64,000 nt of DNA from Spironucleus salmonicida (lineage: Eukaryota), in assembly GCF_000497125.1 (NCBI RefSeq), contig NC_090597.1, positions 1,065,797-1,129,796 on the forward strand, written 5' to 3'. Below are positions 21,350 through 59,461 of the stretch, piece by piece. The notes below the pieces were generated by a model that did no database searches, was not told where the DNA came from, and saw only the letters and a list, made by a program, of their open reading frames with translations. Position numbers and translations under genes: made by a program. Every line of letters starts with the position of its first letter. Position 1 is the stretch's first letter.

Positions 21350-23128
21350 ATGTCGAGCTCGTGTACTGCTGAAGATTTAACAACCTGTGACGAAAAATTC
21401 TTCTGTCTTATCGCCGGTGAAGAAGCAGATAAGACCTATACTTGTACCGCCTGTGCTTCCCCATGCGAAAATTGCGAAACTGCTGCTACCACCTGCACAA
21501 GCTGCATCAATGGTTTCAAGGAACCAGTTAATAACGTATGCACAGAGTGCAAAGATGCATTTTTCCCTTCAGGTGAAACTCCTCCTACCACGTGCACCGC
21601 CTGCGACGCGAAATGCGCAACCTGCACAGGAGTTGAGGCCACCTCCTGTTAAACCTGCACAAACGGTAATTCGTTAACTGGAACTACCTGTTCCGCCTGT
21701 GTTTCAGGAGAAACCATGAAGTGCACCTGTGGCTCCGCTACTAACTGCTCGACTTGCGATTCCACTGATATGACAAAATGCGCCGTCTGCGCGAATGGCA
21801 ATTTCATTTCTGAGAATGTCTGCACAGAGTGCGTAGCTGATCAGCCCACCTCTTGCGCGTGCGGTACCGCAGTTAACTGCGCAACCTGCGCCGATAACAT
21901 GAAATCTTGCGCTAGCTGCAACGGTAACTATGACTTTTCTGCAGATACTCCTTGCTCGAAATGCAAGGCCAAGTTCTTCGAGAGCGAAACCGAAGGAACT
22001 AAAACCTGCGAAGCCTGCGACGCGAATTGCGAAAATTGTGAGATTTCTGCGACGGCCTGCACGAGCTGTCCCGTTGGTTCTGGGCTCAAAGAGAAAATAT
22101 GCAAAAAGTGCTCTGCGAACTGCGTGGAATGTGGTGCGGACTCTGATGTCTGCACATAGTGCGATGATAGCTCAGCTCTAAGCGAAGGTGCGTGCATCAA
22201 AAACTGCACCAATGACACTGACTGCATCGCCAACCAAATCTGCGACACCACCTGCTAGGACTGCACCAGCAACTGCGCAACGTGCGAGGGGGCCGTCACA
22301 ACCTGCAAAACCTGCCTCCCTGAATTCGGAATCAAAGACTTGACCACGTGCGTAGCTTGCACTGAAAACTGCGCAGCTTGCGCAATGGACTCAACGGTAT
22401 GCACAGAATGCAAAAATGGCAATATCTTGAATACAAATGTTTGTACTGCCTGCACGGAAAACATGGAAACCCAGTGCAAATGCGGCGAGCTGATCAACTG
22501 CGCCACGTGCGATTCTGCCGATGCCAGCAAATGTAAGTCGTGCATTGCCAGTTACAAGGCTGGTACTGACGGTGCCTGCAATCTTTGCGCCGACGGCTAC
22601 TTCATGGATGGTGAAAAATGCGGTAAATGCGGCGAAAAATGCTCCAAATGTGAGAAAGACGCCAACACGTGTACTGTATGTGCGGAAGCTTATGTAATGA
22701 GCATAAATCAGACCTGTGAAGCAAAATGCGGCTCCCTAAATGAGAACTAAGCCTGTGTTGATGGAAAGGCGGTTGATTGCGGTGCTGAAGGCCAAATTAC
22801 TGGTTGCAAGTGCGGTGCCGCGATAAACTGCTTTGAGTGCGATAAGTCAACGCCATAAGCTTGTGGCAGCTGCCTTGTTGCGTACAATTTTGAGAATTCT
22901 GTTTGCAGTTCGTGCAAAGACCTAGTTAGTACGCCTATAGGCGAATTTTGTATACTTTTATAACCTGAAGCCGAAAAATCTAGCAACAAAATCTCTGGAG
23001 GTGCCATTGCAGGTATAGTCATCGCAGTTATTGTGGTAGTCGCTGCTATCGGTGGCGGTGTCTTCTGGTACATGAAAAAGTCCAAAGCTTCGTCTACCTC
23101 GAGCAGATCCGATGCTGCTATGCAATGA
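21350..23128 (+). CDS. Cysteine-rich membrane protein (CRMP), 592 aa
   Basis: Intact code-6 ORF with CXXC repeats, [29 protein letters not shown] and tail MKKSKA. Confidence 0.9.
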
Positions 23129-23804: not shown

Positions 23805-25668
23805 AGTAGTAAGTGACCCGTAGATAAAGTATGATTTCGTCATCTCCAATTTTACAAAAGGGAAGTCATGATTATGGTAGCAGCGCGTACATTAAAAGGA
23901 TTTGAATGTTTTGAAACTGAAGTTGACAAGAGGCACACTTTTACTCTGTAGTATTTACTACTAGTATTATCTTATAAAATGTGGAACTGTTCGATTAACT
24001 ACTTCAATTATGGTTACGCTCTCATTTTACCATTTATAATATAATAATTAATTGATCCTCGTCTATGTATTTATAAACCGGTTATAATAATTGTGTTGTT
24101 TATTTTTAATGAGTCTGCAGTATCTTAGTAATATTAATATTATACTTTATCTAGTACTTATATTAAACCATACTCTTGTTTAATTTACTTCCTATGTGTA
24201 ACTATTGTTGAATTCCTTTCCTATTCTTAAACATGCTTAAGATCTGCTTTCTCAGTAACTATTACAATATATTTAACTTTATACTTCCCACCAGGACTTA
24301 AAAAATGAATTACAAATCGATGCAAGATCTTTTCTAAAATAATATGATGTATTACCCCTTCTTTCTTATATAACGTTATCTCTTGTTAAGCATTTGCTGT
24401 CTTCTAATACTTTAGCAATGTAAGGATCTTATTTATAAATAATACCTTTCTTATCGAATCCTACTGATACTTAATATTACACATCAGAATTATTAAGATG
24501 TTTTACTATTACATGTGTAACCCATAATTTGCTGAGCATTTCTTTTGTGTATAAAATTATTTAGTGTTCCTCCTCCTAGCGTTAGAATATATTAACTAAA
24601 TTTTATACTCTACGCTCATGCAATACTTACTCCTATTATTTTTACTTTTTAAGAACGTCTAATTCCTCCAAAGTATTTATAATAATTCGCCATCTCCTTT
24701 CGAATAGCTTCATAATTGTTTTCCTCTAGGTATTTTTATTATTATTCTATACTGTCTTTATTAGGACTAAACTCTTTGCCATATTCAAGTAAGAAGTCCA
24801 TAATAGTTGTTATAAAAGGCTGTCTTGTGGGTAACCTGTCAAGATTAAGTTAATTAGAAGTTTTACAACTTTTGAACAGTGTAATACAAACTTCTCATTA
24901 TTTAAATTAACGCCATGATCGTTCGCTTAAATTCTAGCTAGTAATGTTTCGCTAACTGTGCCACTTTATTAAAAGATGGTCGTCAAATCATAATCTTTTA
25001 TAAAATTAACAATGTAGCATTCCCGGATAGAAAAGCTAATAGTACTAGAAACCGTCTAATAAAGTTAAGTTTACTCTTATAAATTAATATAAATTATAGC
25101 TGATTTATAAAAGCAGTTACTAAGTATTCTTTCTAAGCGATTCTATGTTTCCTATTAGTTTAATGGATGGTAGGTTAAACCTGTTTCTGCTTGTACTTTC
25201 TTAGTAGTTATTTTGAATTTAGGAATTATTTTACCTTACACTCTTCCGGTTTGTGCATTAACTGAATGACAGATTGCAAAACAGTTCTACGTTTAATATA
25301 ACACTTATTATTCTATACTCTTCGTGCAATTCTTCATATATATTTTTAATGAACATCTACAGAAATGAGTTTATAAATATAATTCTTCATAAATCAAATT
25401 AAATAGCTTGTTAAGTATCTAATATTATTAGTAGTATGCAATACGTACTAAAAGCAAAGACTTGTTAAAGTCATTTTCAAAATATACAATCCTTTTAGAG
25501 CCGTGTTGCTCCCGTAAAAGGCTTGAATGTTTTAAAAATAACTTTCCCAAGATTTATACCTTTAGTAAGTATTATATAATACTGCCAGTTCTATCCCATA
25601 GAATCAAAAGTAGAATTGGTCTCTCTTAAGTTTTGAAAAATAGTGATCAACTCTTAAACTTAAAAAAA
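23805..25668 (+). repeat. Left terminal inverted repeat of element A
   Basis: Reverse complement of 32973-34836, same length, with a few clustered mismatches. Starts AGTAGTAAGTGACCCGTAGAT. Confidence 0.95.
24252..25646 (-). CDS. TIR-encoded reading frame, possible divergent DDE integrase (left copy)
   Basis: Mirror copy of the TGA-free frame at 32995-34389. Coordinates were derived from the TIR mapping. Confidence 0.4.
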
Positions 25669-25792
25669 CATTACTCTCAGATTCGAATTGATCAGCCTAT
25701 GGTTTAAAATAGAATTCATTTTAATCAGATAAGACCAAAAAAGTAAAAGCATAAATTTGCTATTTTAAAAACATTTTTTTTAGTCTAATAAA

Positions 25793-28700
25793 ATGGAACA
25801 CAACCACACAGCACTTGTATAATCAAACATTAAGGGTATTCTACAAAAGCTGCAGTAAGTTACATAACAATACGTCAAGAGGGAGTTATCTCTTTAAGAG
25901 TACTACCAAAAATAATAGTAATACAAGTTATATATTCATCATATTAAATTATTGAAAAATAAACTAGTTCAAATATCAAAGGATAATTTAAATGATTCTT
26001 AAACTAAACTATTAAAACAAGAAATTAATAAGATAAGGAAGATCTGATCGTAATAACAATCAGATAAAATTGATATAGATTAATACAAGAAATATTAAAA
26101 AGATTACAAGCATATATCTATTTTAAAAGATTAAATAAAGTAGAACAATAATTAAATATCACTCATACTAGAAAAATAAATTTCATCTGTATATAAAAAC
26201 AAATAGATTAAATTATTAAGAACTAAAACAGAAAAGTATAATGAAATGATCAATAATCTAAACGATAGGGTTTAAGGAGTTGTCTCATAGAAAATAATTA
26301 GATAGTTGAATGACATAATTACTAAAATTAATTAGACTCAAATGCTTTGGTCAATGAATAAGTAATTGACTATGATTAATTTAATGTAGAAGATGTTACC
26401 TTTGCTGAAAGAATTAATGGAGAGTTCAACTTACTATAGATGATGCTTCCTCGTATTGAATCGATAGAATAATTTTTAAAGGAATTCGATAGGAATACTA
26501 CATTCTAAATTTATACAGAACAACCTTTGATAGGTTAGTAGATAAATATGAGCGGATATGTGAACTCATTTATTTTTACAAAAATATAATTTATTGGTCA
26601 ACATGGTAAGCTTATACCGTTTAGGTTACTATTTTAAAATTAAGAGACTAATATTTTAAAAGAAATCTTTACTGAAATAATAAGAAGCAGTATAAAGTAT
26701 TTCGGTGTGTAAATAAATGAGAATGAGTTAGTATCATTTTCAAATATTGGAATTAAAAAGTTTAAGGACTTGACATCGATAAAATAGTTAATTAACTGTT
26801 TGAAACACTTGATACATTCTATAAGATGTTTAATGAATGGGATCCGACTTATGACTACGGATTTTAAATAGGCTTACTTCGCAAAATTTCAGGAAATGCA
26901 TATGAAGAAGATAAATAAATAAAATATCTTTATAAAGGATCAATATTCTTTGTTAGAAATAATGATGAAAAATATTTATATGCAGCAATAATTTCAGCAT
27001 TCATTAAAAAAAACAACTTATTGTTAATGGTAAATATACTTTAAAAATTAATAATTAAATATACATGATTCCTAAAAATGCATTCAGTCATGGAACATAA
27101 CTGAGAAACGATTCAATAAATAATAAAAGTTAAAACTTATATTTATTTACTTAGTTATTATTTGGATTTATAAGCATTGTTGGAGATGATTTATCAGGGG
27201 AGGAAATAGTTTAAAGAGCAGAAAGCGTATTCGAATTAAATATACTAAGATTAACATTAGCAAATTAAAATGATATCTTACCATCTCGTACAGAAGATTT
27301 ATTACTTGTTCAAAACAAAACAGCGAATTACAAAGGGCATTACAATGTAATTATGGAATATAAATAATACGTAAATACTATCAAACCACTCTACAAAGAT
27401 TATAATTATTTTTATGAACATAGACTGTTTACATACCGTAAAAACAAATGTAAAAACTGTGTTCTAGTAGGAGCAGTTGTTCAAGAATATTATTGTTAGC
27501 TCTGTTGTTACAAACATGAATTGGATTAAAATAATATGAATCATTAATGCGAGAATTGCAATATTAAATTAAACCATGAACCTAATACTAAATGCTTAAA
27601 AAGATATAATGATATTTATTAATTATTTACGCCTTTTGTTAATTGTGGTAGAGTTCATAGTAGATCAAATAGATGTTATGCAAAATTATAACATGATGAG
27701 CTATACTTTAAAAAGGGGTTGCTTAAGAAAGATTAAAAGTCATACGTAGTTTGGGATATTGAAAGCTACTTTGAAAACGTTCCAGAAGAATTAATAGATA
27801 AAGCTTCAATGCAACACATACCGTTTTTAGTATCTTGGTATATAATGAAATATGATAGAGCGAAGAATTAATATACTTAACAAGACTTCTTTTATAAAAA
27901 CAACCTTACATTTATACAAGATGGTAACTTTACTCTATCAAATGATTAATTCCTAATTAAAATTATTGATCATATCAAAATTGTAGCAATGAAATATAAA
28001 GTATACGATTTCTACTGTCACAATGCAGCTGCGTACGATAACTATTTATTACTATCTGAATTATCAAAGTACGGAGTTGAAAACTATAAAACTGATAGTA
28101 TAATTAATAATATCAAACTACTTCAACTAAAATTGATAATATATATTTTAAAGATTCATTTAGAATCATTCCTATGCCACTGTCTAAATTAAATAAAGAC
28201 TTAGATTTGAGACTTGTTGTAGGAAAATAACCTCAGTCATATACATATCTAATTAAAAATATGTCTGATTCATTTATTAATAGAGGAAGTATACTAATGG
28301 CTATAAAGCAACTTGTAGATTCAAACACCCTTTAGTTAAAACATTTCAATAACTTATCAAAAGATGAGTTTAATTAATATGTAATTGATTATGGTCATAT
28401 TGACTATATTACTTAATACATAAACTACTGCATTCAATACTGTTTCGTTTTAGCTGTAGCAATAAGGAAGTAAATTGAAATCTCACTTCAGGAATAAAAA
28501 GTCAACATCATTAATTATTTAACAGCACCAGCAATGGCCATAAACTTATATACTCATAATTGTGTTTCATAATTGTAAAATGGATTCTAAGATTTAAAAC
28601 ATAATAAATCTAAATGTAAATACAAGCTGTCTCAATTAATTTAATAAGATATTTAATCAACAAATAAATTATTAGATACTGGTTTTAATTAAATATCAAA

Positions 28701-30654
28701 TATTTTGTATAATTAATAATTCAAAGGATCAAGATACAACATTGATAGAGTGTTCACGACTGATAATAAGAAATATGGTCTTGAGTTAGATGGTACCTTT
28801 TATAATGGATTAAAAGAACTAAGTTGCAAAGATGAATACCATATATTATAACAATAAAGATTAGAAGCTTATAATAATAATAATTAATATTTAAATAGTA
28901 AGATGGAAGCCAACAGCTTTGAATAAATATTTCATGTAACTGACAAGCAGTGTATACAATTCGAAAAAGATAACAATATAAAGATAGAAGTACCTAAACG
29001 TTTTGACATAACCAACAGATCAATCTTGACTGAAGGAAGAGCATAGTGCTTTACAGATCACATGAAAATAAACAAGAAGAAATTTAAGATGTATGGAATT
29101 GATTTCACATCACTGCATCCATCTGCAATGGTATTTTGAAACTTGTCATTAAGAGATTTGGTTATTTAAACGCATTACGGGAACACTGTTTATGATTCAA
29201 AGATACACGATAAGTATAATATTAATTAAATCAAATTTAAAATAGATTATAAGTATATTGGTTAATTAAAGTTGTATGTTAAATAGATTCCAAGAATCAT
29301 TAACGCTGAAACAAGACTGTAGTACTTCTTATAAGGATGTGATAAACATAAAAGATTGATCTAAATCAAATATTAAATGCTTCCTCCATAATTATTAAAA
29401 TACCCATTTTTAGGAACTAATATTTGCGGTAAGTTACTATATCCACTTTCTAGTACATGTTCAGGATAGAAATGTTTAGATGCAAACAATCATACACGTT
29501 GCAACCACAATGAAGATGAAATAATACATAAAGGATTCTGGCATGAAACTGAATTGATAAATGCTTTATACGAAGGATATAAGTTCGGAGACATATACGA
29601 GACACATACTTACTAAATATCAAGTTTTAATGATAACGAATATTAAGGAGGAGATTTCATTAATTCATAGATGTTCAACTAGACACTGAACTCAGATGAA
29701 GATGATTATAAGGATGAAACTGTACTAAAACAATTAGCAAATGATTGTGACTTTGATTATATTTATAAAGATGGTATAGCATCAATCAAATAAAAAAGAT
29801 GAATTTGAATATAGATAAATCAAACTAAATTAAGGAGTAAAAATTTTTTATAAGTTGTTATTAAATGCAACGTATGGTAAGATAGGTCAGAATGTTGTAA
29901 GACCAACTGAGTCATTTGCCAAAGGTGAATTCCTTTTCGGCATGCATGATGAAGAGTTACATAGGGATTATAAAATTGTATTTATTAGATAAGGTATGAG
30001 TAAGAATATTTATACATACGAAGAAGAATTATAATAGACATAAAGAACTTAAGCAAATGCATCCTTAGCAGGAACGACAACAGCAGTAGCAAGAACTATG
30101 CTTAACACATTAATAAGATATGTAAATGATGAACTAAAAGGAGTTGTTTTATATGCTGATACAGATTAAGTTTATTGTGTTTTGGATAGATCAAAGTTCC
30201 TAAACCTAACTTCAGTAACCTTCAAGAATACATACTCTTGCAAATGCGAATAGAAGCTTGGTCCAAATGAATGGGTTTGTATAGGAGCAAAGCCATATGC
30301 ATACACAGACCGAGTTAGATATGCATATACATCAAATGGTATCACATTAGATAAAACAGGTATTATTGAAGCAGATGAAGGGAAGCTTGCTCATGTATTC
30401 GATATTTATAAATCAATATTATTTGATTAAATATAATTTAATGAGGATGATATTATTTAAATGAAAGACTCAAACACTGAGACAAAAGTGAAACAGGAGT
30501 TAAACTTTATAAGAAATAATAAAATATATAACATATATACTCATACAAGATATAAAGTAATTAGATAATAGTAATAAAAGAGGCTTTTGACTTTAGTTCA
30601 AGACCTGATTAAATATCAACATTGCCTTTTGGATATGATAAAGTATAAGCGTGA
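25793..30654 (+). pseudogene. Protein-primed family B DNA polymerase polyprotein (Polinton type), disrupted
   Basis: Motifs in order: WDIES (ExoI, 27752), HNAAAYD (ExoII, 28019), FKDSF, DFTSLHPSAM (motif A, 29101), KLLLNATYGK (motif B, ~29852), YADTDQ (motif C, 30152), GAKPY, C-terminal TLPFGY. Contains several frameshifts and in-frame TGA (e.g. 29137). Confidence 0.92.
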
Positions 30655-30732
30655 TTCATGTAATCCATTTTGGATTCCGATTCACTTTAGCGAATTACTT
30701 TAGTCGCTCATTTTTTGTATTAATAAAACAGC

Positions 30733-31801
30733 ATGGAAAGCAAAGCTTCCCGGACGCCTTCAGCGCTCATGGAGTACAATATCCAATCAGACGAAATTAA
30801 ATTTTTGAAATTAAAAAAAATGAAATAATGAGTTACGGTTATGGTTATTTTGGACTGATGGGTTCAGCATGAACAGGAAAAACGTATTCAATGAATAAAA
30901 TAAATTAAGCATATTAAGATTAAAGTAAACTATCAAAGTATAATTTAGATGATGCTCATTTAAATAATGGAGCTATAACTCATACGTTCTTCTGAAGTCC
31001 AACTATAGATTGTGATTAAACTTATTAAAAATCAAAAGGCAAAGACAATAGAATTAATATACCATTTGTTGATTTGAATGGAATAAATTCAAAATAAAAG
31101 CTATTAATGTTATGCTAAGAATTATAGAAAATGAAAACCATTACAAATCTATCACTGATAATACAAGAATAAATACTAACTACTTTAAAAGATAAAGAAA
31201 TTAAAAAATGGAGATCAAAAATATTCTTTCAAGTTTTCAAAAACATACTTTCACAATTCGAGTGGGTAAAGCAATAGTAGTAAGAATGTTTAGTTTTATA
31301 TAAAGACTGTTTAGGTGATGATGTGGATTAGTATATGTAGTTGCTGTATGAATAAATTGGATTGCGTTATAATAAATATTGGATACGAAGATAAAAATAG
31401 TTTTATTCTTAGATGACATGAGCGGGAGTTCAGTATTTCAAACTACAACTGAATCTAATTTCTATAAACTAATTATTTAAAGAATACATCTTGGGATTTG
31501 GGCGACCATTTAATGTTTACATTCTATTAAGATACTGTATGGATCTTTTAGATAGTTGTTTACAGCTTTCTTGTTAATGAAAGGTCTCAAGGAAGAACAT
31601 CTAAAAGATATCTTTGAGGACATTAGAAGGATAAGAAGTTAAGAATTTAAATCAAAATAGTTTATTGAATTGTATAATAGAACCATTGGCTATTTTGGAA
31701 ACGACTATTCGAAGAGAGGACAGTTCAAATATAGTTTTTTATATATAATTATTTAACCAGACCCAATGATCTTTATAAACTTTGATAAGCAAGTTAAGTG
31801 A
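30733..31801 (+). pseudogene. A32/FtsK-HerA-like DNA packaging ATPase, disrupted
   Basis: Walker A GSA*TGKT (TGA at 30870, likely from GGA). Walker B IVLFLDD (~31400). RIHLGIWATIQ resembles the RHxxx...Q arginine-finger motif. C-terminal FLYIIIQPDPMIFINFD. Confidence 0.8.
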
Positions 31802-31861
31802 GTATCTGTTAATTTTTATCTACATTTAAATGATAGTACCTTCATTTTTTTAACCAAAGAA

Positions 31862-32269
31862 ATGGTAAAGTTCATAAATATAAAACTACTGATTGAAGAA
31901 AACAAAAGAGACGATCTCGCATTCATCGAAGTAATAGTAAACAATGAACCCATAAAAATAACTAAGGAAACTAGTACTAAGCAGAAATTTGAAAGTAATA
32001 AAGTATATAACAAAGTTGAATAAATAAGATTGCTTAATAAAGATAAACAAGTAATAGCTGTGTTACCTTAAGAACTTGCACAATAGAACTATTATCATAC
32101 TCCTGATGTCCTTAGCACTAAGCAAGCCTATAGCAAGTATATAATAATTAACAAGATTGAAACATGTCATTTTGGTACATACTATAAACAAATCTAATAT
32201 TTATTAGATGAAAAACAATTGAAAACTATTTAAGCTATTGAGCCAGCTTCAAGAGAACTATATTTCTGA
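31862..32269 (+). CDS. Element-encoded hypothetical protein (135 aa)
   Basis: Intact code-6 ORF MVKFINIKLLIEE...SRELYF* inside the element. Confidence 0.6.
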
Positions 32270-32386
32270 TCCAAAAGGATTTAAGCAAAAAAAAATAAAA
32301 ACCAAATAACTATGGTCGCCTTTGGGCTTCCACTTCTTAAAGATCATAACGTATATTTTAAAGAAACCTTTTTTTAATAAACAAAA

Positions 32387-32944
32387 ATGGATCGATAAGC
32401 AATAGTTAAAGATCAAGAAGCAAAACCAACTTACAAAGAAGCGATATAGGTTCTGTAAAAGTAAGATAGCTTAGAAGACTATTCAAAAGAGGTTATCAAG
32501 TATATTGAAGTACTTCCAAAAAGTTCTGATGTTGAACCTCCAGGTAAAGTAAACTTCAGCCAAGCTAATTATAATAACATGCAATCGTCATTATTGAAGT
32601 TTGAAGAGGATAGTTACAATGCTAAGTTTGGATACTATAATAAAATACTAATAGCAAGATACATTTCCTTAGAACTAACACACAGACTGTTGTATGATAT
32701 GGTTGAATAAGTTGTAGCGTTGTCAGGGTATTGTTTTAAAGGCAAGAAATAGGATGACATTAGACTGTACAACACGATGATTATTTTAGATACAATTTTG
32801 TAAGAAAACTAATCAACTTCATCTAAACTATGTAAGATTTATTTATAAGAATTAATTAATAAACTTTTGAAAAACAATAAACGAAAAGATCTTATTAAGT
32901 TAGTTCAGAATCTATTTTAGATAGTAACTAAAATGTTTACGTGA
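32387..32944 (+). CDS. Element-encoded hypothetical protein (3' end uncertain, possibly frameshifted)
   Basis: MDRQAIVKDQEAKPTYKEAI... preceded by the same T-run/TAATAAA motif as the other element genes. Confidence 0.5.
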
Positions 32945-32972
32945 TGTGGAATCTGAAACTGTTTTTAAAACT

Positions 32973-34836
32973 TTTTTTTAAGTTTAAGAGTTGATCACTA
33001 TTTTTCAAAACTTAAGAGAGACCAATTCTACTTTTGATTCTATGGGATAGAACTGGCAGTATTATATAATACTTACTAAAGGTATAAATCTTGGGAAAGT
33101 TATTTTTAAAACATTCAAGCCTTTTACGGGAGCAACACGGCTCTAAAAGGATTGTATATTTTGAAAATGACTTTAACAAGTCTTTGCTTTTAGTACGTAT
33201 TGCATACTACTAATAATATTAGATACTTAACAAGCTATTTAATTTGATTTATGAAGAATTATATTTATAAACTCATTTCTGTAGATGTTCATTAAAAATA
33301 TATATGAAGAATTGCACGAAGAGTATAGAATAATAAGTGTTATATTAAACGTAGAACTGTTTTGCAATCTGTCATTCAGTTAATGCACAAACCGGAAGAG
33401 TGTAAGGTAAAATAATTCCTAAATTCAAAATAACTACTAAGAAAGTACAAGCAGAAACAGGTTTAACCTACCATCCATTAAACTAATAGGAAACATAGAA
33501 TCGCTTAGAAAGAATACTTAGTAACTGCTTTTATAAATCAGCTATAATTTATATTAATTTATAAGAGTAAACTTAACTTTATTAGACTGCTTCTAGTACT
33601 ATTAGCTTTTCTATCCGGGAATGCTACATTGTTAATTTTATAAAATATTACGATTCGACGACCCTCTTTTACTAAAGTGGCACAGTTAGCGAAACATTAC
33701 TAGCTAGAATTTAAGCGAACGATCATGGCGTTAACTTAAATAATGAGAAGTTTGTATTACACTGTTCAAAAGTTGTAAAACTTCTAATTAACTTAATCTT
33801 GACAGGTTACCCACAAGACAGCCTTTTATAACAACTATTATGGACTTCTTACTTGAATATGGCAAAGAGTTTAGTCCTAATAAAGACAGTATAGAATAAT
33901 AATAAAAATACCTAGAGGAAAACAATTATGAAGCTATTCGAAAGGAGATGGCGAATTATTATAAATACTTTGGAGGAATTAGACGTTCTTAAAAAGTAAA
34001 AATAATAGGAGTAAGTATTGCATGAGCGTAGAGTATAAAATTTAGTTAATATATTATAAAGCTAGGAGGAGGAATACTAAATAATTTTATACACAAAAGA
34101 AATGCTCAGCAAATTATGGGTTACACATGTAATAGTAAAACATCATAAGAATTCTTATGTGTAATATTAAGTATCAGTAGGATTCGATAAGAAAGGTATT
34201 ATTTATAAATAAGATCCTTACATTGCTAAAGTATTAGAAGACAGCAAATGCTTAACAAGAGATAACGTTATATAAGAAAGAAGGGGTAATACATCATATT
34301 ATTTTAGAAAAGATCTTGCATCGATTTGTAATTCATTTTTTAAGTCCTGGTGGGAAGTATAAAGTTAAATATATTGTAATAGTTACTGAGAAAGCAGATC
34401 TTAAGCATGTTTAAGAATAGGAAAGGAATTCAACAATAGTTACACATAGGAAGTAAATTAAACAAGAGTATGGTTTAATATAAGTACTAGATAAAGTATA
34501 ATATTAATATTACTAAGATACTGCAGACTCATTAAAAATAAACAACACAATTATTATAACCGGTTTATAAATACATAGACGAGGATCAATTAATTATTAT
34601 ATTATAAATGGTAAAATGAGAGCGTAACCATAATTGAAGTAGTTAATCGAACAGTTCCACATTTTATAAGATAATACTAGTAGTAAATACTACAGAGTAA
34701 AAGTGTGCCTCTTGTCAACTTCAGTTTCAAAACATTCAAATCCTTTTAATGTACGCGCTGCTACCATAATCATGACTTCCCTTTTGTAAAATTGGAGATG
34801 ACGAAATCATACTTTATCTACGGGTCACTTACTACT
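32973..34836 (-). repeat. Right terminal inverted repeat of element A
   Basis: Ends ...ATCTACGGGTCACTTACTACT. Inverted copy of 23805-25668. Confidence 0.95.
32995..34389 (+). CDS. TIR-encoded reading frame, possible divergent DDE integrase (right copy)
   Basis: 465-codon TGA-free frame, first ATG at 33304. THF...CFAIC could be a degenerate Zn finger. IQANDHGVNLNNEKF resembles SDNGxEF. FERRWRII is a candidate catalytic E. FDKKG lies near the C-terminus. Confidence 0.4.
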
Positions 34837-35966
34837 GTAGTATATCTTTGTGAAAATTAATTAATTCATATTTACGTTTATGTTTTCCTATTATCCTATC
34901 GACGGGTTATCTGTATGAATTGTGAACGATTTATTTTTATCAAATTCAAGGATAAACTATTGTACTGCTTCAATGTGTAGTAACCTCATTTAGTTAATCA
35001 TAAAATTGGCATTGATTCTTTCATCAAAATTAACGATAAGTATATTAAATGCATCATAATTTATTTATAACTATTTAATATTAACTGTCGATTACTATTA
35101 TTTAATTTTGGTAATTATATTTTGTAATTATTTAATTCTGTCTTCGGAAATGGATCCTTAAACCCTATCATTCATATTTTTAATTATTTATTTAAATTAC
35201 TCTATTTATGCTACTAGTAAATTAAATTATTTATCACGCCATTCTTTTGAAATAACATGTTAATTAAATTTATAATTATTGTTTAGTATTTTTAGATTTG
35301 CGTTATTTATTTCGTTTTATAAAATATTCATATGTTTGAATGATCTTTCGAATTCCTTGTATTTATCCAAATTAATATTATTGATGTGTTATTCTGTTTA
35401 AATCGATTTGATTTAGTTGATTTATTATTTTAATTTTTTAACTTGATAGATTGATAAATCATCTTTTGCTATTCTATTTATTTTTAATTCAGAATTTCAG
35501 GATGATAAAGTTATAATTTATATTGTTTTTACTTCATATTTGAAAAATGTTGGATCTAAAGAGTTATCTTTACTGCATTTATATTTTCTGTTAAGATCTT
35601 GTCGTAATTTAATCCCATTTTTTCATATATTAAACAAATATCTTTTTTGAATTCAATTTATTGGGGATTATATCCTTTCCATTTTTGGGGATAATTGAAA
35701 TAAATTATGTGTATTTATATTCTATTTTTGGAATTTTTGTTTTTTTAAATTTTTATATTCTATTTTGATGATTTTATTTGGTAAAACTAATCTGGAATTC
35801 AACTGAAAAATCCTGCACCGGGGCGGCCCATCCATACCCTCGATATCTTTAGAAATTGGGGCGAGGAGCGGACCATTTGATTGAGCACTGGTTTTTTACT
35901 GATTTGATTTTTTTTGAAATTTTGATTTCTCAATACTGTAGAAATCTACGGGCGGAAGGGACTACT
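34837..35966 (-). mobile_element. Truncated Polinton-like element of a second family (element B): one terminus plus the 5' part of the pPolB ORF
   Basis: Minus-strand terminus AGTAGTCCCTTCCGCCCGTAGAT. The ORF from 35618 aligns with the element A pPolB N-terminus (NDRVQG; FDERINANF...EFDKN...IFTKI versus FAERINGEF...EFDRN...IFTKI). Confidence 0.8.
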
Positions 35967-36226
35967 AACTATGGTTGTTCTTCCCCAATTTTACTTACCT
36001 GATGGCAATATATCATAGATTATTTTGCAAAAAAAATGACAGATATTAACTTTTATATTATCCTATAAATTATATTTTCCGCCATTATACAAGTTTTATA
36101 CAAATTGATTAATATATATTCTGAATCCATATAATTATATATTTTTATTTATATTGTAAAAGAAACTAAATACTTTATTCTATGCTTCAGTATTCATTAT
36201 TATCAGTTTACTCTACTTCTATAAAA

Positions 36227-39172
36227 ATGTCGAACTCGTGTACTGCTGAAGATTTAACAACCTGTGACGCAAAATTCTTCTGTCTTGTCGCGGTTAGTGA
36301 TGGTTCAGATACGACCTATACTTGTACTGCCTGCGCTTCCCCATGCGAAAATTGTGAAACTGCTGCTACCACCTGCACAAGCTGCATCAGTGGTTTCAAG
36401 GAGCCAGTTAATAACGTATGCACAGAGTGCAAAGATGCATTTTTCCCTTCAGGTGAAACTCCTCCTACCACTTGCACCGCCTGCGACGCGAAATGCGCAA
36501 CCTGCACAGGAAGTGCGGACAGCGCCTGCTAAACCTGCACAAACGGTAATTCTTTAACTGCCACTACCTGTTCCGCCTGCGTTTCAGGAGAAACCATGAA
36601 TTGCACCTGTGGCTCCGCTACTAACTGCTCGATGTGCGCAACTGATATGACAAAATGCGCCGTCTGCGCGAATGGCAATTTCATTTCTGATAATGTCTGC
36701 ACGGCATGTTAAGATAATTAACTGATTGCTTGCGCGTGCGGTACCGCAGTCAACTGCGCAACCTGCGCTACTGATAACATGAAATCTTGCGCCACCTGCA
36801 ACGGTAACTATGACTTTTCTGCAGATACTCCTTGCTCGAAATGCAAGGCCAAGTTCTTCGAGAGCGGTATAGAAGGAGCTAAAACCTGCGAAGCCTGCGA
36901 CGCGAATTGCGAAAATTGTGAGATTTCTGCGACCGCCTGCACGAGCTGCCCAGCAGGTTCTGGGATCAAAGACTAAAAATGCGAAAAGTGCTCTGCGAAC
37001 TGCGTGGAATGTGGTGCGGACTCTGATGTCTGCACATAGTGTGATAATAGCTCAGCTCTAAACGGAAACGCGTGCATCAAAAACTGCTCTACCAATGCCG
37101 ACTGCAGCTCCAGCCAAATATGCGACACCACCTGCAAGGACTGCACCAGCAACTGCGCAACGTGCGAGGGGGCCGTCACAACCTGCAAAACCTGCCTCCC
37201 TGAATTCGGAATCAAAGACTTGAACACCTGCGTAGCTTGCACTGAAAACTGCGCAGCTTGCGCAATGGACTCAACGGTGTGCACAGAATGCAAAGATGGT
37301 CATATCTTGGGCGAAAACACCTGTACTACCTGCATTTCAGGAGATACCAGTAATTGCACCTGTGGCAGCGCTACTAACTGCTCTACTTGCAATTCTATTG
37401 ATAAGACAAAATGCGGAGTATGCGCTAATGGTAATTTCATGGGTGAGAATATCTGCACGAGATGCTAAGATAATCAACCCACCCCTTGCGTATGTGGTAC
37501 TGCAGTTAACTGCGCAACCTGCGCCGATGATATGGCATCCTGCGCTACCTGTAACGGTGAATATGATTTTCATACTGTTCCTCCTTGCTCAGAATGCAAT
37601 ACAGGGTATTTTAAGAACTCTGATACCCCAAAAACCTGCACAAAATGCGACGCGAAATGCGCAACCTGCACAGGAAGTGCGGACAGCGCCTGCTAAACCT
37701 GCACAAACGGTAATTCTTTAACTGCCACTACCTGTTCCGCCTGCGTTTCAGGAGAAACCATGAATTGCACCTGTGGCTCCGCTACTAACTGCTCGATGTG
37801 CGCAACTGATATGACAAAATGCGCCGTCTGCGCGAATGGCAATTTCATTTCTGATAATGTCTGCACGGCATGTTAAGATAATTAACTGATTGCTTGCGCG
37901 TGCGGTACCGCAGTCAACTGCGCAACCTGCGCTACTGATAACATGAAATCTTGCGCCACCTGCAACGGTAACTATGACTTTTCTGCAGATACTCCTTGCT
38001 CGAAATGCAAGGCCAAGTTCTTCGAGAGCGGTATAGAAGGAGCTAAAACCTGCGAAGCCTGCGACGCGAATTGCGAAAATTGTGAGATTTCTGCGACCGC
38101 CTGCACGAGCTGCCCAGCAGGTTCTGGGATCAAAGACTAAAAATGCGAAAAGTGCTCTGCGAACTGCGTGGAATGTGGTGCGGACTCTGATGTCTGCACA
38201 TAGTGTGATAATAGCTCAGCTCTAAACGGAAACGCGTGCATCAAAAACTGCTCTACCAATGCCGACTGCAGCTCCAGCCAAATATGCGACACCACCTGCA
38301 AGGACTGCACCAGCAACTGCGCAACGTGCGAGGGGGCCGTCACAACCTGCAAAACCTGCCTCCCTGAATTCGGAATCAAAGACTTGAACACCTGCGTAGC
38401 TTGCACTGAAAACTGCGCAGCTTGCGCAATGGACTCAACGGTATGCACAGAATGCAAAAATGGCAATATCTTGAATACAAATGTTTGTACTGCCTGCACG
38501 GAAAACATGGAAACCCAGTGCAAATGCGGTGAGCTGGTCAACTGCGCCACGTGCGATTCTACCGATGCCAGCAAATGCGGGTCGTGCATTGCCGGTTACA
38601 AGGCTGGTACTGACGGTGCCTGCAATCTTTGCGCCGACGGCTACTTCATGGATGGTTAAAAATGCGTTAAATGCGGCGAAAAATGTTCCAAATGTGAGAA
38701 AGACGCCAACACGTGCACTGAGTGCACTACAACTTATGTAATGAGCATAAATCAGACCTGTGAAGCAAAATGCAACCCCTTAAATGAGAACTAAGCCTGT
38801 GTTGATGGAAAGGCGGTTGATTGCGGTGCTGAAGGCCAAATTACTGGTTGCAAGTGCGGTGCCGCGATAAACTGCTTTGAGTGCGATAAGTCAACGCCAT
38901 AAGCTTGTGGCAGCTGCCTTGTTGCGTACAATTTTGAGAATTCTGTTTGCAGTTCGTGCAAAGACCTAGTTAGTACGCCTATAGGCGAATTTTGTATACT
39001 TTTATAACCTGAAGCCGAAAAATCTAGCAACAAAATCTCTGGAGGTGCCATTGCAGGTATAGTCATCGCAGTTATTGTGGTAGTCGCTGCTATCGGTGGC
39101 GGTGTCTTCTGGTACATGAAAAAGTCCAAAGCTTCGTCTACCTCGAGCAGATCCGATGCTGCTATGCAATGA
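36227..39172 (+). CDS. Cysteine-rich membrane protein (CRMP), 981 aa; paralog of 21350-23128 with internal duplication
   Basis: Intact code-6 ORF. The last ~130 codons are essentially identical to the first copy. Confidence 0.9.
36482..38458 (+). repeat. Intragenic direct repeat, ~810 bp (36482-37294 and 37646-38458, offset 1164)
   Basis: Near-identical sequence. Identical ORF fragments at 36779 and 37943. Confidence 0.9.
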
Positions 39173-40071
39173 TACAATTTAAAAATTCACTATTACTCAC
39201 CCTTGAGTTCAGAGGTTGATCTTAAATTTGCGCAGTTTCAACGGATTAACGGTATTCTAGACCAGCTGAGTATTGCAGAACTGAACATAATTCCTAGTAT
39301 GCTGTATCAAATTAAAGTGCAGATGGAAGTAAAAATTTTAGGAGGTGCAATATATCGAATGACAGATTAGTTATATTCTGCTCTTTTATTGATGGTTGAT
39401 ATTGATCAATTCATGGACAAAATAGTAAATTTAGTGATGGAACTGAGTTACTTGGTATTGTATAAATTGCACAGCGGCAGTTAAGGCTGAAACTGCTTCG
39501 CTAACCGTAGGTCAATTTTAATAAATGATACGCTGCTACTAAATTATGAGCAAATATTCCATATAAATAAGAATAGATTTTTCTAAAATAACTACTATCC
39601 AATTTGATTAATAATTAACGATTAAAATTTTAACTATAAAGCAACAGTTAAGTTTAATATGTATTAACCCCATTTTTCATATATATATACATATTATTTG
39701 TAAACTTACTGAATGTCAAAATACACAGTACAAATTCTTAAAGCCTCTAAGGTATTTTACCATTACTATTTTGAGTAAGCTATATTTTAGAAGTCGAAAC
39801 CAAATTTAAACAAGAATTTGCATAATAATTATAGTGTATAGTTGTTTTATGCAAAACCTTCATTTCACATCCGATTTGTAAAAAAAAGTATAAGTAATGA
39901 TGTTGCAAGAACTAAGTAACATATTTATATATGTATTTTAAAATAACTTATACAATATAAATTAAAATACACAGCAATATTATTAATTACTGATTAGTAG
40001 ACGTATAAACCCTAACAATTCACTTTTATAAATTTAAAGCGTATAGATAGCTTTGATATCTGAAATCTAAA

Positions 40072-46371: not shown

Positions 46372-47566
46372 TTTGATTTTGGTAAAAATATATAGTAACT
46401 AGATCATTTTAATCTTATGCAATATTTAAAATAATTTAGTTTGTTATAGAAAATAAACTTCAGTTTGTATAAACTATACTATGTTTAAACATAGATCAAA
46501 AGACTAAAATAAAATACCAAAAATCTGTAGATTTTAAAAATTTATTAAATTAGTTAGTATAATAAAATAGTTAATTTTATTCCATAAGGATTGTATTAAA
46601 AAAATGAAAATATAGGTACAAAATTATTTTATATTTTACTTTCAGAATGCAATATTATTATAATTTCTAGATTTATCAGATATCTGTACTTTAATAAATT
46701 AATTTAATTAGTGGGTAAATTTCTCTCATCTTAAGCCACATCCTAGTTAAATCATTATTTGAGTGATATTAAAAACAATAGATAACGCGTGTTATATGCT
46801 ATATAACTAATAGTGAATATGGAATCTCTGTATATGTTAAATCATAACTAATATCTTAGTTCAAATTTATTGCAGCTGAACTATATAGTAAAATCTGTAT
46901 TTGTGTGTAAACTATTCAAACTTAAATTACATGTTTACATCCTAAATTTTATATAAAGTGATATTTATATGGATATAATTATTATATCAAATATTTTATT
47001 TACAAACTTTATCTATAGTTTATTATTATACTTCAACAAATATGTATTACGCTATGTGATGGTATTTTAAACGGGCCTTTCCCCAGCCTGATGTACGCTG
47101 CGTGCCTTTACTAGCAAACCCCTGCTCAGCCGAAAATCATGTCCTCAGTCTTAGTTATAGCGATAGGTATCTGAGTGATTCCTTTTTACTACATTACGCT
47201 GGCCAGGGTTTCGAAGCCCTACCGCTTTATTGCAGTATCCTATGTTGCCAGCCTTATTACCATTCGCGTCCATTTATCAGCCCTGCTCCGCCCTGGTAAT
47301 GCTCTGACACCAACGGCCCGGTCCTTCCAGGGCGCGTGCCTGGCGGAATCCAGCGACCTGGTGGTAGCGGCGGTTGGCGGGCTGAAACAGTACTCAGCCC
47401 CTACCGCACTCGGTGGAACCTACGAACCGACCGCCAAGCCGCTTTAGCCAGCACTGCTTGTGCGCATGTGCTAGCGCTCGGCCCTACCATTGCAGATCTC
47501 CGCTTCCTTTCCCATTCTGCGGGACACCTATTATATGGCATTACAGCCCGTACCCCAAAGATCACA

Positions 47567-48643
47567 ATGCTGGCGCTCCTCGCCGCTTCCACGCTGGCCT
47601 CCGGCTCCAACTACAGCGGGAAGCTGGGCCTCTCCCTCTCACCAAAGGTCACTTCCAACGTGTACGCCTTCGCTGGGCTGGACACCGCCTTCGAGCACCT
47701 GGCCCTCTGCAGGGACAGGGCCTTCGGGCTCGCGGACGGCAGGGTGCTTGCCTGGGGCAGGAACCTGTTCGAGGGCTTCACGTACTTCGAGGCTCCGAAG
47801 CCGCTGCGCCAGCTGGACGGCATAGCGGCGGTGAACATCTCCTGCGCGGACCACTTCCTGGCTGTCCAGACCGCCGCCGCAGTGCTCGTGCTGGGCCTGT
47901 TCCAGGGCACCAACCACACCGAAGTCGCGCTGGAGGTGCCGTTTGGCGGCCCGATAGCGCAGATCCTGGCCAGCAACAAGACGGTCTACCTCCTGAGCGA
48001 GGGCAGCGTCTTCACGACCGAGAATGGCGAGTTCGCCCCCTTGAAGGTGCCGTTCCCGGTGACCAAGTTGACTATTTTCGACGGCGTGCTGGCGCTCTAC
48101 AGCGGGATGGTGGTGTACGTCGCCAAGCGCGGCCGGTACGTCCGCCAGCAGGCCGAGTGCCTCCAGTTCACGAACGCGTCCACCTACCTGGACGCTGCCG
48201 GGGCGCTGTTCTACGACACGCTGCAGGTGGACTCGGGCGTCGCCTCCTACGCGCTGACCGCCGACGGCGTGCTGTACCTCAAGGGCGGCGACCTGTACGC
48301 CCTGGGGAGATCGGCGGCCGGCGAGCTGGGGTTCCAGGGCGTGGCCGAGCTCAGGCGGCACATGGCGTACTCGGTGGGGGCGGTGTTCGCCTTCGGGGAC
48401 TACGCCTTCGTGACCGGGGTGCAGCCGGCGAGCGGGTTCAGGATGCCGGTCTGGGGGTACATCGCCCTCGGGGGCGTGGGCTGCACGGCGCTGCTAGTGG
48501 GCCTCGTGCTGCTCATCGTGTGGCTGAAGAAGACGGGCAGGATCAGCAGGTACCCGATCCTCGAGGAGAAGGCGCACCTGATCTCCGTCGACCGGCTCAC
48601 GGACGCAGAGTGCACGACGCGGGAGGTCAGCGCGACCTACTGA
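47567..48643 (+). CDS. Type I membrane protein with RCC1/BLIP-II-like repeats (358 aa)
   Basis: Signal MLALLAASTLA. Motifs DGRVLAWGRN and GDLYALGRSAAGELG. C-terminal TM and short tail. Confidence 0.75.
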   Translation: MLALLAASTLASGSNYSGKLGLSLSPKVTSNVYAFAGLDTAFEHLALCRDRAFGLADGRVLAWGRNLFEGFTYFEAPKPLRQLDGIAAVNISCADHFLAVQTAAAVLVLGLFQGTNHTEVALEVPFGGPIAQILASNKTVYLLSEGSVFTTENGEFAPLKVPFPVTKLTIFDGVLALYSGMVVYVAKRGRYVRQQAECLQFTNASTYLDAAGALFYDTLQVDSGVASYALTADGVLYLKGGDLYALGRSAAGELGFQGVAELRRHMAYSVGAVFAFGDYAFVTGVQPASGFRMPVWGYIALGGVGCTALLVGLVLLIVWLKKTGRISRYPILEEKAHLISVDRLTDAECTTREVSATY

Positions 48644-48663
48644 GTGAGAGGCTTCGAATCACG

Positions 48664-48894
48664 TCAGAGCAGCCCCACGAACTGCACGCGGGACGCCTGG
48701 ATGGTGGTGACGCCGGCGGGGGCCAGCTCCGTGCTGGAGAGCCTCTGCGCGGCGCCGTCCAGCACCAGGTTGCCGTAGAGGTCGTAGGAGAGCAGCGTCC
48801 CGGTGAAGTGGGCGCCGGTGTCCGTGACGACCGCCACCTGCCGGCCGACGTAGGCCGCGAAGGCGTGGGTCTGCTGGGCGAGGAACTCGGACAT
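48664..48894 (-). CDS. Sm/LSm-family protein (76 aa)
   Basis: Sm1 motif YVGRQVAVVTDTGAHFTGTLLSYDLYGNLVL and Sm2-like GVTTIQASRVQFV. Confidence 0.85.
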   Translation of the reverse strand: MSEFLAQQTHAFAAYVGRQVAVVTDTGAHFTGTLLSYDLYGNLVLDGAAQRLSSTELAPAGVTTIQASRVQFVGLL

Positions 48895-48937
48895 TGTGGA
48901 GGGGAGGTGATCCCGGAAAGTGAAGGAATTTATCGAC

Positions 48938-50206
48938 TCAGTGCACGCGCTCCAGGGGCTCGGCGCGCGTCTCCACGGCGGTGATGATCTCGTCCTCCGC
49001 GGCCCGGTCGACGGTCTGTTTGAAGTCCTCGGCCGGGCAGTCCGCGTCTGGGGCGGCCTGGTCCTCGGGCTTGTGCCGGCCCATCCACTTGCCGTGCAGG
49101 ACCTGGTTGGGACGCTTCAGGAAGGGGATGACGAGGAGGACGTTGTTGAAGATGAGCACCCCGCAGGTGACCACCACGAAGCCGGCCCACTTGACGGGCG
49201 TCGACTGCGGGTTCCAGGGCTCCCAGCCGAGCGAGATGGACATGATCCAGACCAGGATGGGCTTCAGCGAGCCGAAGGTGGTGCGGGTGGCGGCCGAGAC
49301 GTGGTTGGTGATCTCCATGCCGGTGAAGTTGAGCACCAGCACGAACAGCGCGTAGAAGATGTGGTACAGCACCTGCTTGTACGAGATGGACATCTGGTAC
49401 GCCCAGCCCGCGAGGTCCTCGAAGTTGGACTTGGGTATCGTGGTCGAGAGCGGGTCCGTCACGATGTTGAGAATGGGGAGCGCGATAGCGCAGAAGATGA
49501 GCCCCCAGCCGCCCTCGTTCGCGACGCCCATGAAGCCGATGGTCTGGATCCGGCGCAGGGACAGCTCCTCGGCCAGGTAGAACCAGGACGCAATGAAGCA
49601 GCCCAGCAGCGTGAAGATGATGCCCATCGCGGGGTTGAGCGCGACCGAGTTCTGCTGGGTGAAGAGGATGCTGCCGAGGGCGATGATGGTGGCGCCCAGG
49701 AAGAGGATCACGAGCCCCATCAGCTGGGGCAGGTCGAAGCGCTGGCGGTAGTCGCGGAAGATGCAGAGCGAGACGAGGGCCACGAAGACCACGGTCATGT
49801 TGGTCAGGATCGCGTACACCGAGGGGTCCGAGTAGTAGTTCCCGATGTTGAACATCGTGGAGGACACCAGGTCGAAGATGGTCGGGATCGCGAACAGGAA
49901 GGTGTGCGGGATGAAGCGGTAGAAGGTCTTGCCCTCCTTCAGGGGCGTCTGGGGCAGCGCCCTGTGCTTCCGCACGAACTCGCTCGTGAGCCAGATGAAG
50001 ATGCAGCAGAACTCGCCGATGAACATGAAGAGCGTCTGCATGTAGGGGTGGTTGAAGGGGACCGCCGCGCAGGTGGGGCAGGTGGGCAGCGTCTCGAGGA
50101 ACATCGCCTTCGCGACGAGGCCGCAGCCGGTGGAGCAGACGAGCCCCGAGACGATGTAGATCCAGACGACGAGGGAGATGGCCGGTTTCTTGCCTGTGGC
50201 CGCCAT
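48938..50206 (-). CDS. DMT-superfamily transporter (SLC35F6/nucleotide-sugar transporter-like)
   Basis: About 10 TM helices. Motifs FNHPYMQTLFMFIGEFCC, PTIFDLVSS and ITNHVSAATRTT. Confidence 0.85.
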   Translation of the reverse strand: MAATGKKPAISLVVWIYIVSGLVCSTGCGLVAKAMFLETLPTCPTCAAVPFNHPYMQTLFMFIGEFCCIFIWLTSEFVRKHRALPQTPLKEGKTFYRFIPHTFLFAIPTIFDLVSSTMFNIGNYYSDPSVYAILTNMTVVFVALVSLCIFRDYRQRFDLPQLMGLVILFLGATIIALGSILFTQQNSVALNPAMGIIFTLLGCFIASWFYLAEELSLRRIQTIGFMGVANEGGWGLIFCAIALPILNIVTDPLSTTIPKSNFEDLAGWAYQMSISYKQVLYHIFYALFVLVLNFTGMEITNHVSAATRTTFGSLKPILVWIMSISLGWEPWNPQSTPVKWAGFVVVTCGVLIFNNVLLVIPFLKRPNQVLHGKWMGRHKPEDQAAPDADCPAEDFKQTVDRAAEDEIITAVETRAEPLERVH

Positions 50207-50484
50207 TTGTGAAAATGCCGAGAGTGCTGGACGCCCTAATATGAGCTAAAACCCGCTCCCGAAACTGATTCTTAATTTGTGTTACATGACCTTATTAGAA
50301 ATACCGATTACCGCAGATATGTATACTTTGCAGGCAGGGAGCGGTCGCTAATATCCGCTGCATCGCCCCGAATACCTATATTTCCACCTTCCTATTTTAC
50401 GGTAAAAGTGGTCTGGGCGCCCAGCGCGGAGCGGGATAGTTTCGGCGTGGCGGCCTGCCCGCGCGGCCCTTCCGCACAAAAACC

Positions 50485-50498
50485 GCCCGTTCCACTCC
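50485..50498 (+). promoter_or_regulatory. C-rich ATG-proximal promoter motif GCCCGTTCCACTCC
   Basis: The same 14-mer precedes the thioredoxin ATG (51818-51831, minus). Related TTCC(A/G)CTCC-type motifs precede the EF-hand, DRC7 and Nup98-like genes. Confidence 0.55.
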
Positions 50499-50502
50499 CA
50501 CA

Positions 50503-51369: not shown

Positions 51370-51469
51370 GTGACCGCCGTTTTACGCACTCGCGCCCTAA
51401 CCGGCCAGTAACACCTGCGCCACGGGGACAGACGGGCCTGCGGAACTGCGCGCCAACGACGAAACGACC

Positions 51470-51811
51470 TCACTCCATCTGCTCCTCGAGCCACCTGCGC
51501 ATCGGCTTCACGTCGCGCCAGAGGCTGTCGTACTCGGCGACGCGCTGCCCCCCGCGGAAGAGCACCAGCCCCGGGACGCCGTCGACGCCATGCGTGTCGC
51601 AGGTGACGCGGTCCAGGGCGCAGTTGAACTGCGCGAGCGCCACTCTGGCCGGGGCGGCGTCCGAGAGGTCGTAGAAGCGCGGGGAGAGCTGCTGGCAGTG
51701 CTTGCAGTGCGCCAGGTAGAACTTCACGAAGGTGTAGCGGTTCGCCTGCAGCGCCTCCTCCAGGCCCGCGGCGCTCTGCATGTTCAGCACGTGTGACAGG
51801 ACGGCCAGCAT
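51470..51811 (-). CDS. Single-domain thioredoxin/PDI-like protein (113 aa)
   Basis: FVKFYLAHCKHCQQLSP active-site region and CDTHGVDGVPGLVLF cis-Pro region. Confidence 0.85.
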   Translation of the reverse strand: MLAVLSHVLNMQSAAGLEEALQANRYTFVKFYLAHCKHCQQLSPRFYDLSDAAPARVALAQFNCALDRVTCDTHGVDGVPGLVLFRGGQRVAEYDSLWRDVKPMRRWLEEQME

Positions 51812-59361: not shown

Positions 59362-59461
59362 GGTCGTTTCGTCGTTGGCGCGCAGTTCCGCAGGCCCGTC
59401 TGTCCCCGTGGCGCAGGTGTTACTGGCCGGTTAGGGCGCGAGTGCGTAAAACGGCGGTCAC

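Follow-up and report, generated by a model that had tools for sequence, protein, structure and literature searches.

The locus and the question it raises

At positions 34837-35966 of the stretch studied here, the genome of the diplomonad Spironucleus salmonicida raises the question whether two families of Polinton-like element lie nested one in the other and share a terminal motif, as a first-pass annotation had proposed. Positions refer to a 64-kb window (G000:C2:1065797-1129796), by which we mean the whole stretch of DNA that was analysed; the genome comprises 14.5 Mb in 42 contigs, and loci outside the window are given by contig. Genes in the window are readable under translation table 6, in which TAA and TAG encode Gln. 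The two elements, A and B, form a stack that is wedged between two tandem genes for cysteine-rich membrane proteins:

21350-23128, plus strand: cysteine-rich membrane protein gene, copy 1, the left flank of the A+B stack; it has a weak VSP match, under the cut-off
36182-39172, plus strand: cysteine-rich membrane protein gene, copy 2; the end of B lies about 215 bp upstream
39820-39830, plus strand: site behind gene copy 2 that corresponds to A's left insertion site and is empty

Gene copy 2 encodes 996 aa against 592 aa, having been lengthened by an internal duplication of 828 bp (36482-37309 and 37646-38473; 99.5%). Elsewhere in the window, a GC-rich (~65%) inverted duplication of 4.9 kb (47020-51884 and 58947-63810; 99.6%) contains papain-family protease, RCC1-like and transporter-like genes. 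Cysteine-rich arrays are also carried in large segmental duplications (85-97%) at C2:618-646, 684-704, 741-768, 880-916 and 1004-1024 kb. Because these duplications carry identical element stubs, several of the copies counted below represent one insertion.

Element B is the left end of a polymerase-bearing element

The features assigned to B are as follows:

34837-35966, minus strand: element B, left-end relic of a second lineage with a protein-primed family B polymerase (pPolB), 1130 bp, defined by homology, B' copies and depth
35961-35966, minus strand: AGTAGT terminus of B, from the B' alignment; host homology resumes just outside
35944-35952, minus strand: CCCGTAGAT in B, common to A's outer terminus only
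35912-35920, minus strand: subterminal T-tract/CAAAA of B at +47, the better-conserved feature across lineages, picked as a motif after viewing the termini
34837-35618, minus strand: broken N-terminal region of B's pPolB, found by homology; putative terminal-protein part, from its position

The DNA of B matches nine places in the genome, namely itself, four B-like (B') stubs at 84-86% identity and four A-type copies at 65-66%. B and the four B' copies align from AGTAGT inward and have different host flanks, and a paralogous copy of the host gene carries no insert at the position of B's terminus. On these grounds the terminus is real, and B, as judged from the alignments, is a true element end. 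It is present in single copy by depth. B and B' also have a GC-rich 5′ region of their own. A hairpin was sought at the terminus of B and gave a z of 0.07, from which we conclude that this end is not double-ended in the sense described below for A.

The reading frame from 35618 had been annotated as homologous to, and diverged from, the N-terminus of A's polymerase. The homology is borne out at both levels, since blastn aligns the two at 65% over 700 nt (E 1e-24), tblastx against the 5′ region of A's pPolB gives E 4e-50, and blastp of the N-terminal translations gives 36-50% identity and 66-77 bits, compared with at most 27 bits in 300 shuffles. The frame itself is not intact. It has its ATG at 35618 and reads only under table 6, but the homologous frame is broken once, near 35490, leaving 220 aa open from 35496 to 34837. 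As the annotation also stated, B is cut exactly at the right end of A: it stops at 34837, and A's terminal ACTACT is at 34836.

Aligned directly with Hexamita proteins, the B fragment did not score above shuffles. A link to pPolB is made through a third lineage, C, which the fragment matches at 30% over 198 aa (72.8 bits versus at most 26.9 for shuffled sequence) and in which a single natural frame takes in both the homologous N-terminus and the exonuclease domain and motifs. The pPolB N-terminus is helical, with Cys and His motifs conserved in the alignment; its structure model (pLDDT 41.6) is too poor for a fold, and there was no fold match at E ≤ 0.001. A terminal-protein region at the N-terminus of pPolB is described for polintons in the excerpt of PMC11161782 available to us, and by position the corresponding region of A, B and C is a putative terminal-protein region.

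At least three lineages of N-terminal region

The first-pass annotation had counted at least two families. B is indeed a separate lineage, and the number of N-terminal lineages is in fact at least three, since a DNA tree and alignment of 18 copies set A, B and C apart from one another. There, the identity of B is 57-61% with A-types, 88-90% with B' and ~50-58% with C. Purifying selection governed the divergence of B from A (~60% DNA identity, dN/dS 0.28-0.38), and the comparison of B with B' looks neutral (67 codons). The separation of the groups together with this ratio argues that the lineages, at least three in number, were active as they diverged.

A full-length B was absent from both the DNA search and the pPolB matches, each of which scored best candidates only, and the genome DNA search yielded no sequence past B position 1130 that is tied to a B end. 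When the pPolB of an intact relative was compared with the genome, each of the 28 matches lay in an A locus, a C locus or one further locus, D. There is also a further, diverged polymerase at C2:184-187 kb. The element at C5:963514-971341 is a recombinant, 86-98% C-like over the 5′ two-thirds of pPolB and 85-97% A-like at its 3′ end. It spans 7.8 kb and has unlike termini, and a terminus-like stub of 257 bp lies just upstream. Because no body of B has been found and this C5 element combines C and A, the word family, as applied to B, may mean merely an exchangeable left-end module.

The pPolB copies compared (window 27000-30660, C6:1047-1064 kb, and lineage C on C2 and C5) have frame breaks in common: one, equivalent in position, is found in all three A copies, and a different one in every copy of lineage C. 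The A copy of the window and that on C6 show a dN/dS of 0.24-0.31 despite their common break. Patchwork conversion or programmed slippage could be the cause of such breaks.

Element A is a composite built from double-ended palindromic units

The anatomy of A is summarised as follows:

23805-34836, plus strand: composite element A, with 1864-bp inverted arms (99.25%) and no target duplication
23805-23962, no strand: outer double-ended terminal unit, left, 158 bp, AGTAGT at both ends, CCCGTAGAT at 23817
34679-34836, no strand: right-hand outer terminal unit, double-ended; B is cut at its end
33212-34678, plus strand: decayed passenger gene in the arm, 1.47 kb (mirror 23963-25429); environmental homologs, no known family
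25430-25583, no strand: inner ~155-bp double-ended palindromic unit (154 bp; mirror 33058-33211), hairpin z -4.75
25430-33211: core of A, 7.8 kb, ending at the inner units
25793-30654, plus strand: broken protein-primed family B polymerase of A, with several frame breaks
30828-31801, plus strand: broken ATPase-like gene, with Walker A/B-like motifs recognised by eye
31862-32269, plus strand: core ORF3, 135 aa, no known family
32312-32944, plus strand: core ORF4, 210 aa, homologs in this species only

Each long arm is itself composite, consisting of the 158-bp unit, the 1.47-kb decayed gene, the 154-bp unit and 85 bp. Because other copies end at the second, inner unit (C6:16637, C8:1056594), we take the core of A to be 25430-33211; at 7.8 kb it is similar in size to the C5 element, and its terminal repeat is ~239 bp in other copies. 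The arms differ at 14 positions, which are patchily distributed, and a paralog sides with the left arm at eight of them and with the right arm at six. This pattern suggests that the arms have been homogenised in patches by conversion, which rules out dating A from the identity of its arms.

The ends of A-type elements are palindromes of ~155 bp that are double-ended in that a second AGTAGT stands at the other end of the unit. They fold as long hairpins, with z values of -4.75 and -6.95 for two units and weaker values for others; for the ends of B, B' and C the z is ~0. Two unit types precede A-type cores. Units also occur alone, away from cores, on C2, C5 and C9, and dispersed copies are 76-86% identical. 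Such lone units resemble miniature inverted-repeat elements (MITEs) in being short, non-coding and dispersed with long inverted ends, and an exact 5-bp target-site duplication (TSD) is found at one lone mini-element (1 of 13 units checked). A mini-element also lies inside a ~3-kb tandem repeat at C2:465-478 kb, of which five repeat copies were seen.

Two further features of A deserve comment. The passenger gene has seven homolog matches at E ≤ 0.001, of which two are to itself and the environmental ones are short (E 1e-9 to 5e-4); it is predicted to be beta-rich, with low confidence and a best Z of 5.6. A YHP-like stretch in the long arm resembled an integrase motif and was set aside as unproven, as homologs, Pfam and a PDB profile gave no support; the best atlas score was 0.87, a lead only, and fold searches with a model of pLDDT 42 gave no support. 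The block of ATPase-like gene and ORF3 (window 30769-32305) recurs at 88-92% on C1, C2, C4, C6, C8, C14, C15, C21, C23 and C28, mostly ~13-35 kb from the ends of chromosome-scale contigs and also on small contigs. From this recurrence near contig ends we conclude that a piece of the element lies within a subtelomeric repeat.

The terminal motif is restricted to two ends

The terminal motifs are where the annotation had placed them, AGTAGTCCCTTCCGCCCGTAGAT running from 35966 on the minus strand and AGTAGTAAGTGACCCGTAGAT standing at 23805 (plus) and 34836 (minus). AGTAGT is found at A, B and C ends, and (AGT)2 is the commonest end among vertebrate Mavericks in the portion of PMC8097293 available. 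The nonamer CCCGTAGAT has just three sites in the 64-kb window, where ~0.27 would be expected on both strands at the window's composition. Its exact occurrence near two termini has a probability of 2e-6 per position in unrelated DNA, and AGTAGT-N5-9-CCCGTAGAT has four matches in the genome, all of them at element ends (control, 1). These four are A left, A right, a paralog of A left, and B, and thus represent two independent ends.

The proposal that CCCGTAGAT is a conserved replication-origin or integrase-binding site fares poorly in a wider comparison. Among 31 distinct termini (34 listed by hand from examined loci, less three duplicates) it is present in two, and the B' copies lack it; even CCGTA is found in only four of the 31 and is missing from B'. 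A relaxed pattern showed no enrichment across the genome, with 52 matches against 115 for the reversed control. As a general motif, CCCGTAGAT is on this comparison largely refuted. Its first six bases are resembled at positions 13-18 of many A-type ends, and partial common descent or local conversion is a possible origin of the 9-mer common to B and A's outer end.

A T-tract/CAAAA, usually lying at +45-47, is more widespread. Scored in the window +38-54 and within one mismatch, it occurs at 21 of the 31 termini, B and C among them, and at 6 of 197 other AGTAGT sites, the motif having been chosen post hoc and the termini being related. For these two reasons we treat the tract as a lead for a conserved end feature. 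As part of the explanation that we consider probable (see below), the recognised end would consist of AGTAGT with looser subterminal features and not of CCCGTAGAT.

The junction of A and B and the order of events

The annotation had A inserted into B. An A end does lie inside a B gene, but A has no TSD, and no continuation of B was found on A's left side. On its far side A is flanked by host DNA equivalent to the unoccupied site that follows gene copy 2, and the outer flank of B corresponds to the region upstream of gene copy 1. A TSD is likewise absent at the core and at the C5 element, and at 12 of the 13 units checked, where flanks are often rearranged. Clean nesting is unproven because of the missing duplication, the missing remainder of B and the host DNA on A's other flank.

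Short-read contigs from four runs of a single sample, from which the assembly itself may derive, bear on whether the adjacency is real. The junction of B with host DNA is bridged, with 510 bases on one side and 298 on the other. At the A-B junction, contigs in all four runs start 30 bases inside A, one short of the bridging rule, and continue into B near single-copy depth. The depth of A's outer repeat, or arm, relative to that of B is ~3:1, and the arm is present in three copies. The only other flank listed for the A end is its left host junction, with three loose ends besides, and no read or contig covers the whole 12-kb stack. A palindrome with 6-bp arms spans the junction (34830-34842); such a feature was seen at 1 of 15 junctions.

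Similar one-sided junctions recur elsewhere. At C6:16637 and at C2:900426, a pPolB of lineage C, in inverted orientation, is cut by an A-type end, and four segmental duplicates carry a B' that breaks off at position 685 against the terminus of a C element. No remainder of the target was present at the C6, C2 and B' junctions in the DNA examined, the far side at C6 being itself truncated.

Overall, we consider it probable that what survives as B is the left end (the terminus and the 5′ part of pPolB) of an element from a distinct, formerly active lineage of Polinton/Maverick-like elements, and that the joining of an A end into it was accompanied by loss of the DNA in between. B would have landed a short way upstream of a gene for a cysteine-rich surface protein, one of a tandem array, with an A-lineage element sitting downstream of the neighbouring gene copy. 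The right end of A would have been joined precisely into the polymerase gene of B, and the DNA between, comprising the body of B, the spacer and any target duplication, would have been lost. This may have come about through one-ended attack by the A terminus, that is, an adjacent deletion of the kind known from IS and Ac biology, or in two steps, a further A copy inserting into B in the ordinary way and then recombining with the first; because the arms of A are homogenised in patches, the two routes are indistinguishable here. The termini, the homology, the divergence of the lineages, the geometry of the junction and the loss of B's remainder are observed; we infer the sequence of events and a joining of integrase type, by an enzyme that acted in trans or has since disappeared. 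The precise terminus at the cut and the different flanks of A's two ends favour this account, as do the missing TSD and B remainder and the recurrence of such junctions elsewhere. Against it, no integrase was found in the element or the genome, and the joining enzyme is unseen; the single exact TSD, at a lone mini-element, and the palindrome across the A-B junction also weigh on this side.

Several other explanations have to be weighed against this one. B could be one of several exchangeable left-end or terminal-protein modules circulating in a single recombining population, its lost body having been A-like or C-like. Such exchange is seen in the C/A recombinant on C5, the N-termini of A copies (72%) are much less alike than their polymerases (86-98%), and there is no B body for comparison. 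We nevertheless think this rather unlikely, given that B and B' form their own group at ~60% from A and 50-58% from C, with a GC-rich 5′ region of their own and a divergence constrained by selection. We also regard as unlikely, by a slightly wider margin, the idea that the ~155-bp units are an independent MITE family that lies on either side of pPolB cores and mobilises them as composites, in which case A's outer end would belong to a MITE and its likeness to the B terminus would be due to convergence or local conversion. The lone units on C2, C5 and C9, one with its exact TSD, and the two unit types ahead of A-type cores fit this idea, as does the weak terminal similarity of B to A's outer end (p 0.029), where 0 of 1000 shuffles reached that of B to B'. 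However, the termini of B and C, with fold z near 0, are not double-ended and yet have both AGTAGT and the +45-47 tract in common with the units, which argues for common descent from Polinton-like ends.

Clean insertion of A into B, with CCCGTAGAT as a conserved origin or integrase site, seems to us quite improbable. It gains from the confinement of the four spaced matches to element ends, from the rarity of an exact 9-mer in unrelated DNA and from the six-base resemblance at many A-type ends; it is opposed by the reduction of those matches to two independent ends, by the low counts among the 31 termini and in B', and by the missing TSD and B remainder. Finally, the adjacency might be an assembly join through the repeated arm, for which three copies of the arm and the want of a piece spanning the whole stretch would allow. 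This is very improbable indeed, since the contigs of all four runs pass from A into B near single-copy depth and the sole other flank of the A end, loose ends apart, is the left host junction.

Polinton features of the elements

The definition of Polintons or Mavericks (Polintoviricetes) was taken from the available parts of PMC10748475, PMC8097293 and PMC11161782. A natural frame of 749 aa in a related copy has 31 homologs at E ≤ 0.001, all of them PF03175; the top ones are four intact Hexamita inflata proteins (P0001-P0004) of 1512-1518 aa, with E down to 5e-105, of which P0002 reaches 70 bits (cut-off 25.8). The pieces of A's polymerase tile residues 327-1501 of one of these intact Hexamita proteins, and A thus carries a protein-primed family B polymerase, if a broken one; B retains the N-terminus alone. 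Ends of (AGT)2 type and terminal inverted repeats are both present, B having one end only.

An RVE integrase was sought with PF00665, which gave no match in the genome at E ≤ 0.1 (control detected in 7 of 14) and none in the scanned ORFs; a very diverged or lost copy is possible. A tyrosine recombinase (PF00589) gave no match in the genome, its control being detected in 14 of 14. Pox_A32, PHROGs and PDB searches with the ATPase-like gene returned no match, and its homologs come from this species or unnamed sources only; with its Walker-like motifs it is a candidate packaging ATPase. The capsid search (PF21738) gave no match and its control was likewise detected nowhere, and general Pfam scans of ORFs yielded no Ulp1-family protease. 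With no integrase or capsid and almost no TSD found, A and B do not pass for full Polintons, and Polinton-like is a fair label for what behaves as a decayed, non-autonomous relic.

Comparison with known systems

Several lineages nested in one genome are ordinary for large transposons, and AGTAGT is a textbook Maverick end, so the finding of a second lineage is in itself modest; the double-ended termini and the recurrent one-sided junctions matter more. The elements resemble Polintons in their pPolB (PF03175) with a long N-terminal region, whose Cys/His motifs are placed as in the vOTU domain, and in their terminal inverted repeats, (AGT)2 ends, probable ATPase gene and the decay of most copies. 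They differ in a core of ~7.8 kb as opposed to 13-25 kb, in the RVE integrase, capsid and Ulp1 protease not detected here, in the TSD missing at 12 of 13 units, and in double-ended palindromic ends of ~155 bp that are also found alone.

MITEs are short, non-coding units with long inverted ends, and adjacent deletions by cut-and-paste transposons leave precise end-to-interior junctions with one flank lost. The form of the units and the one-sided junctions here recall both; unlike those of MITEs, however, the ends are of Polinton type. We know of no cognate transposase for the 155-bp units.

Among metamonad hosts, Maverick-type elements are known from Trichomonas vaginalis and Streblomastix strix (PMC10120064, PMC11296320, in the parts available). 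The S. strix elements use TAA/TAG as Gln (same sources), and elements of both species have capsid genes (PMC10120064), which were not detected here. The accessible part of PMC10120064 includes S. salmonicida in its screen and describes metamonad elements in parabasalids and Streblomastix; that of PMC11296320 notes BLAST matches of a PLV PolB in Hexamita and Giardia. The literature searched, which took in few subscription papers, contains no description of Polinton-like element structure in diplomonads, and the available parts of two diplomonad genome papers (PMC9509377, PMC11787283) make no mention of such elements, the latter counting 29 DNA transposons in S. salmonicida. Scans of metagenome and viral collections yielded no DNA context for intact or environmental relatives.

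A tentative reading, to which we give limited credence, is that diplomonads carry a reduced, Polinton-derived class of ~7.8 kb whose palindromic ends act singly under a signal of AGTAGT plus the +45 tract. The class would hold pPolB, the ATPase-like gene and two small ORFs, with no integrase and no capsid, and its ends would be 155-bp palindromes with a second, inward-facing AGTAGT end. Single ends would release MITE-like minis, attack neighbours without a TSD and build end-to-interior stacks, thereby deleting and reshuffling cysteine-rich surface-protein gene arrays. If double-ended termini and one-ended joining are true, they would provide a mechanism for rearranging such arrays in a fish parasite.

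A close parallel is the pPolB of Hexamita inflata (e.g. CAI9945716.1), which has the same domain order and is 34-35% identical over 93% of the polymerase fragment; it is intact there and broken here. Through these intact relatives, the same reading, if true, would allow the recognised bases of a Polinton end to be identified by comparison.
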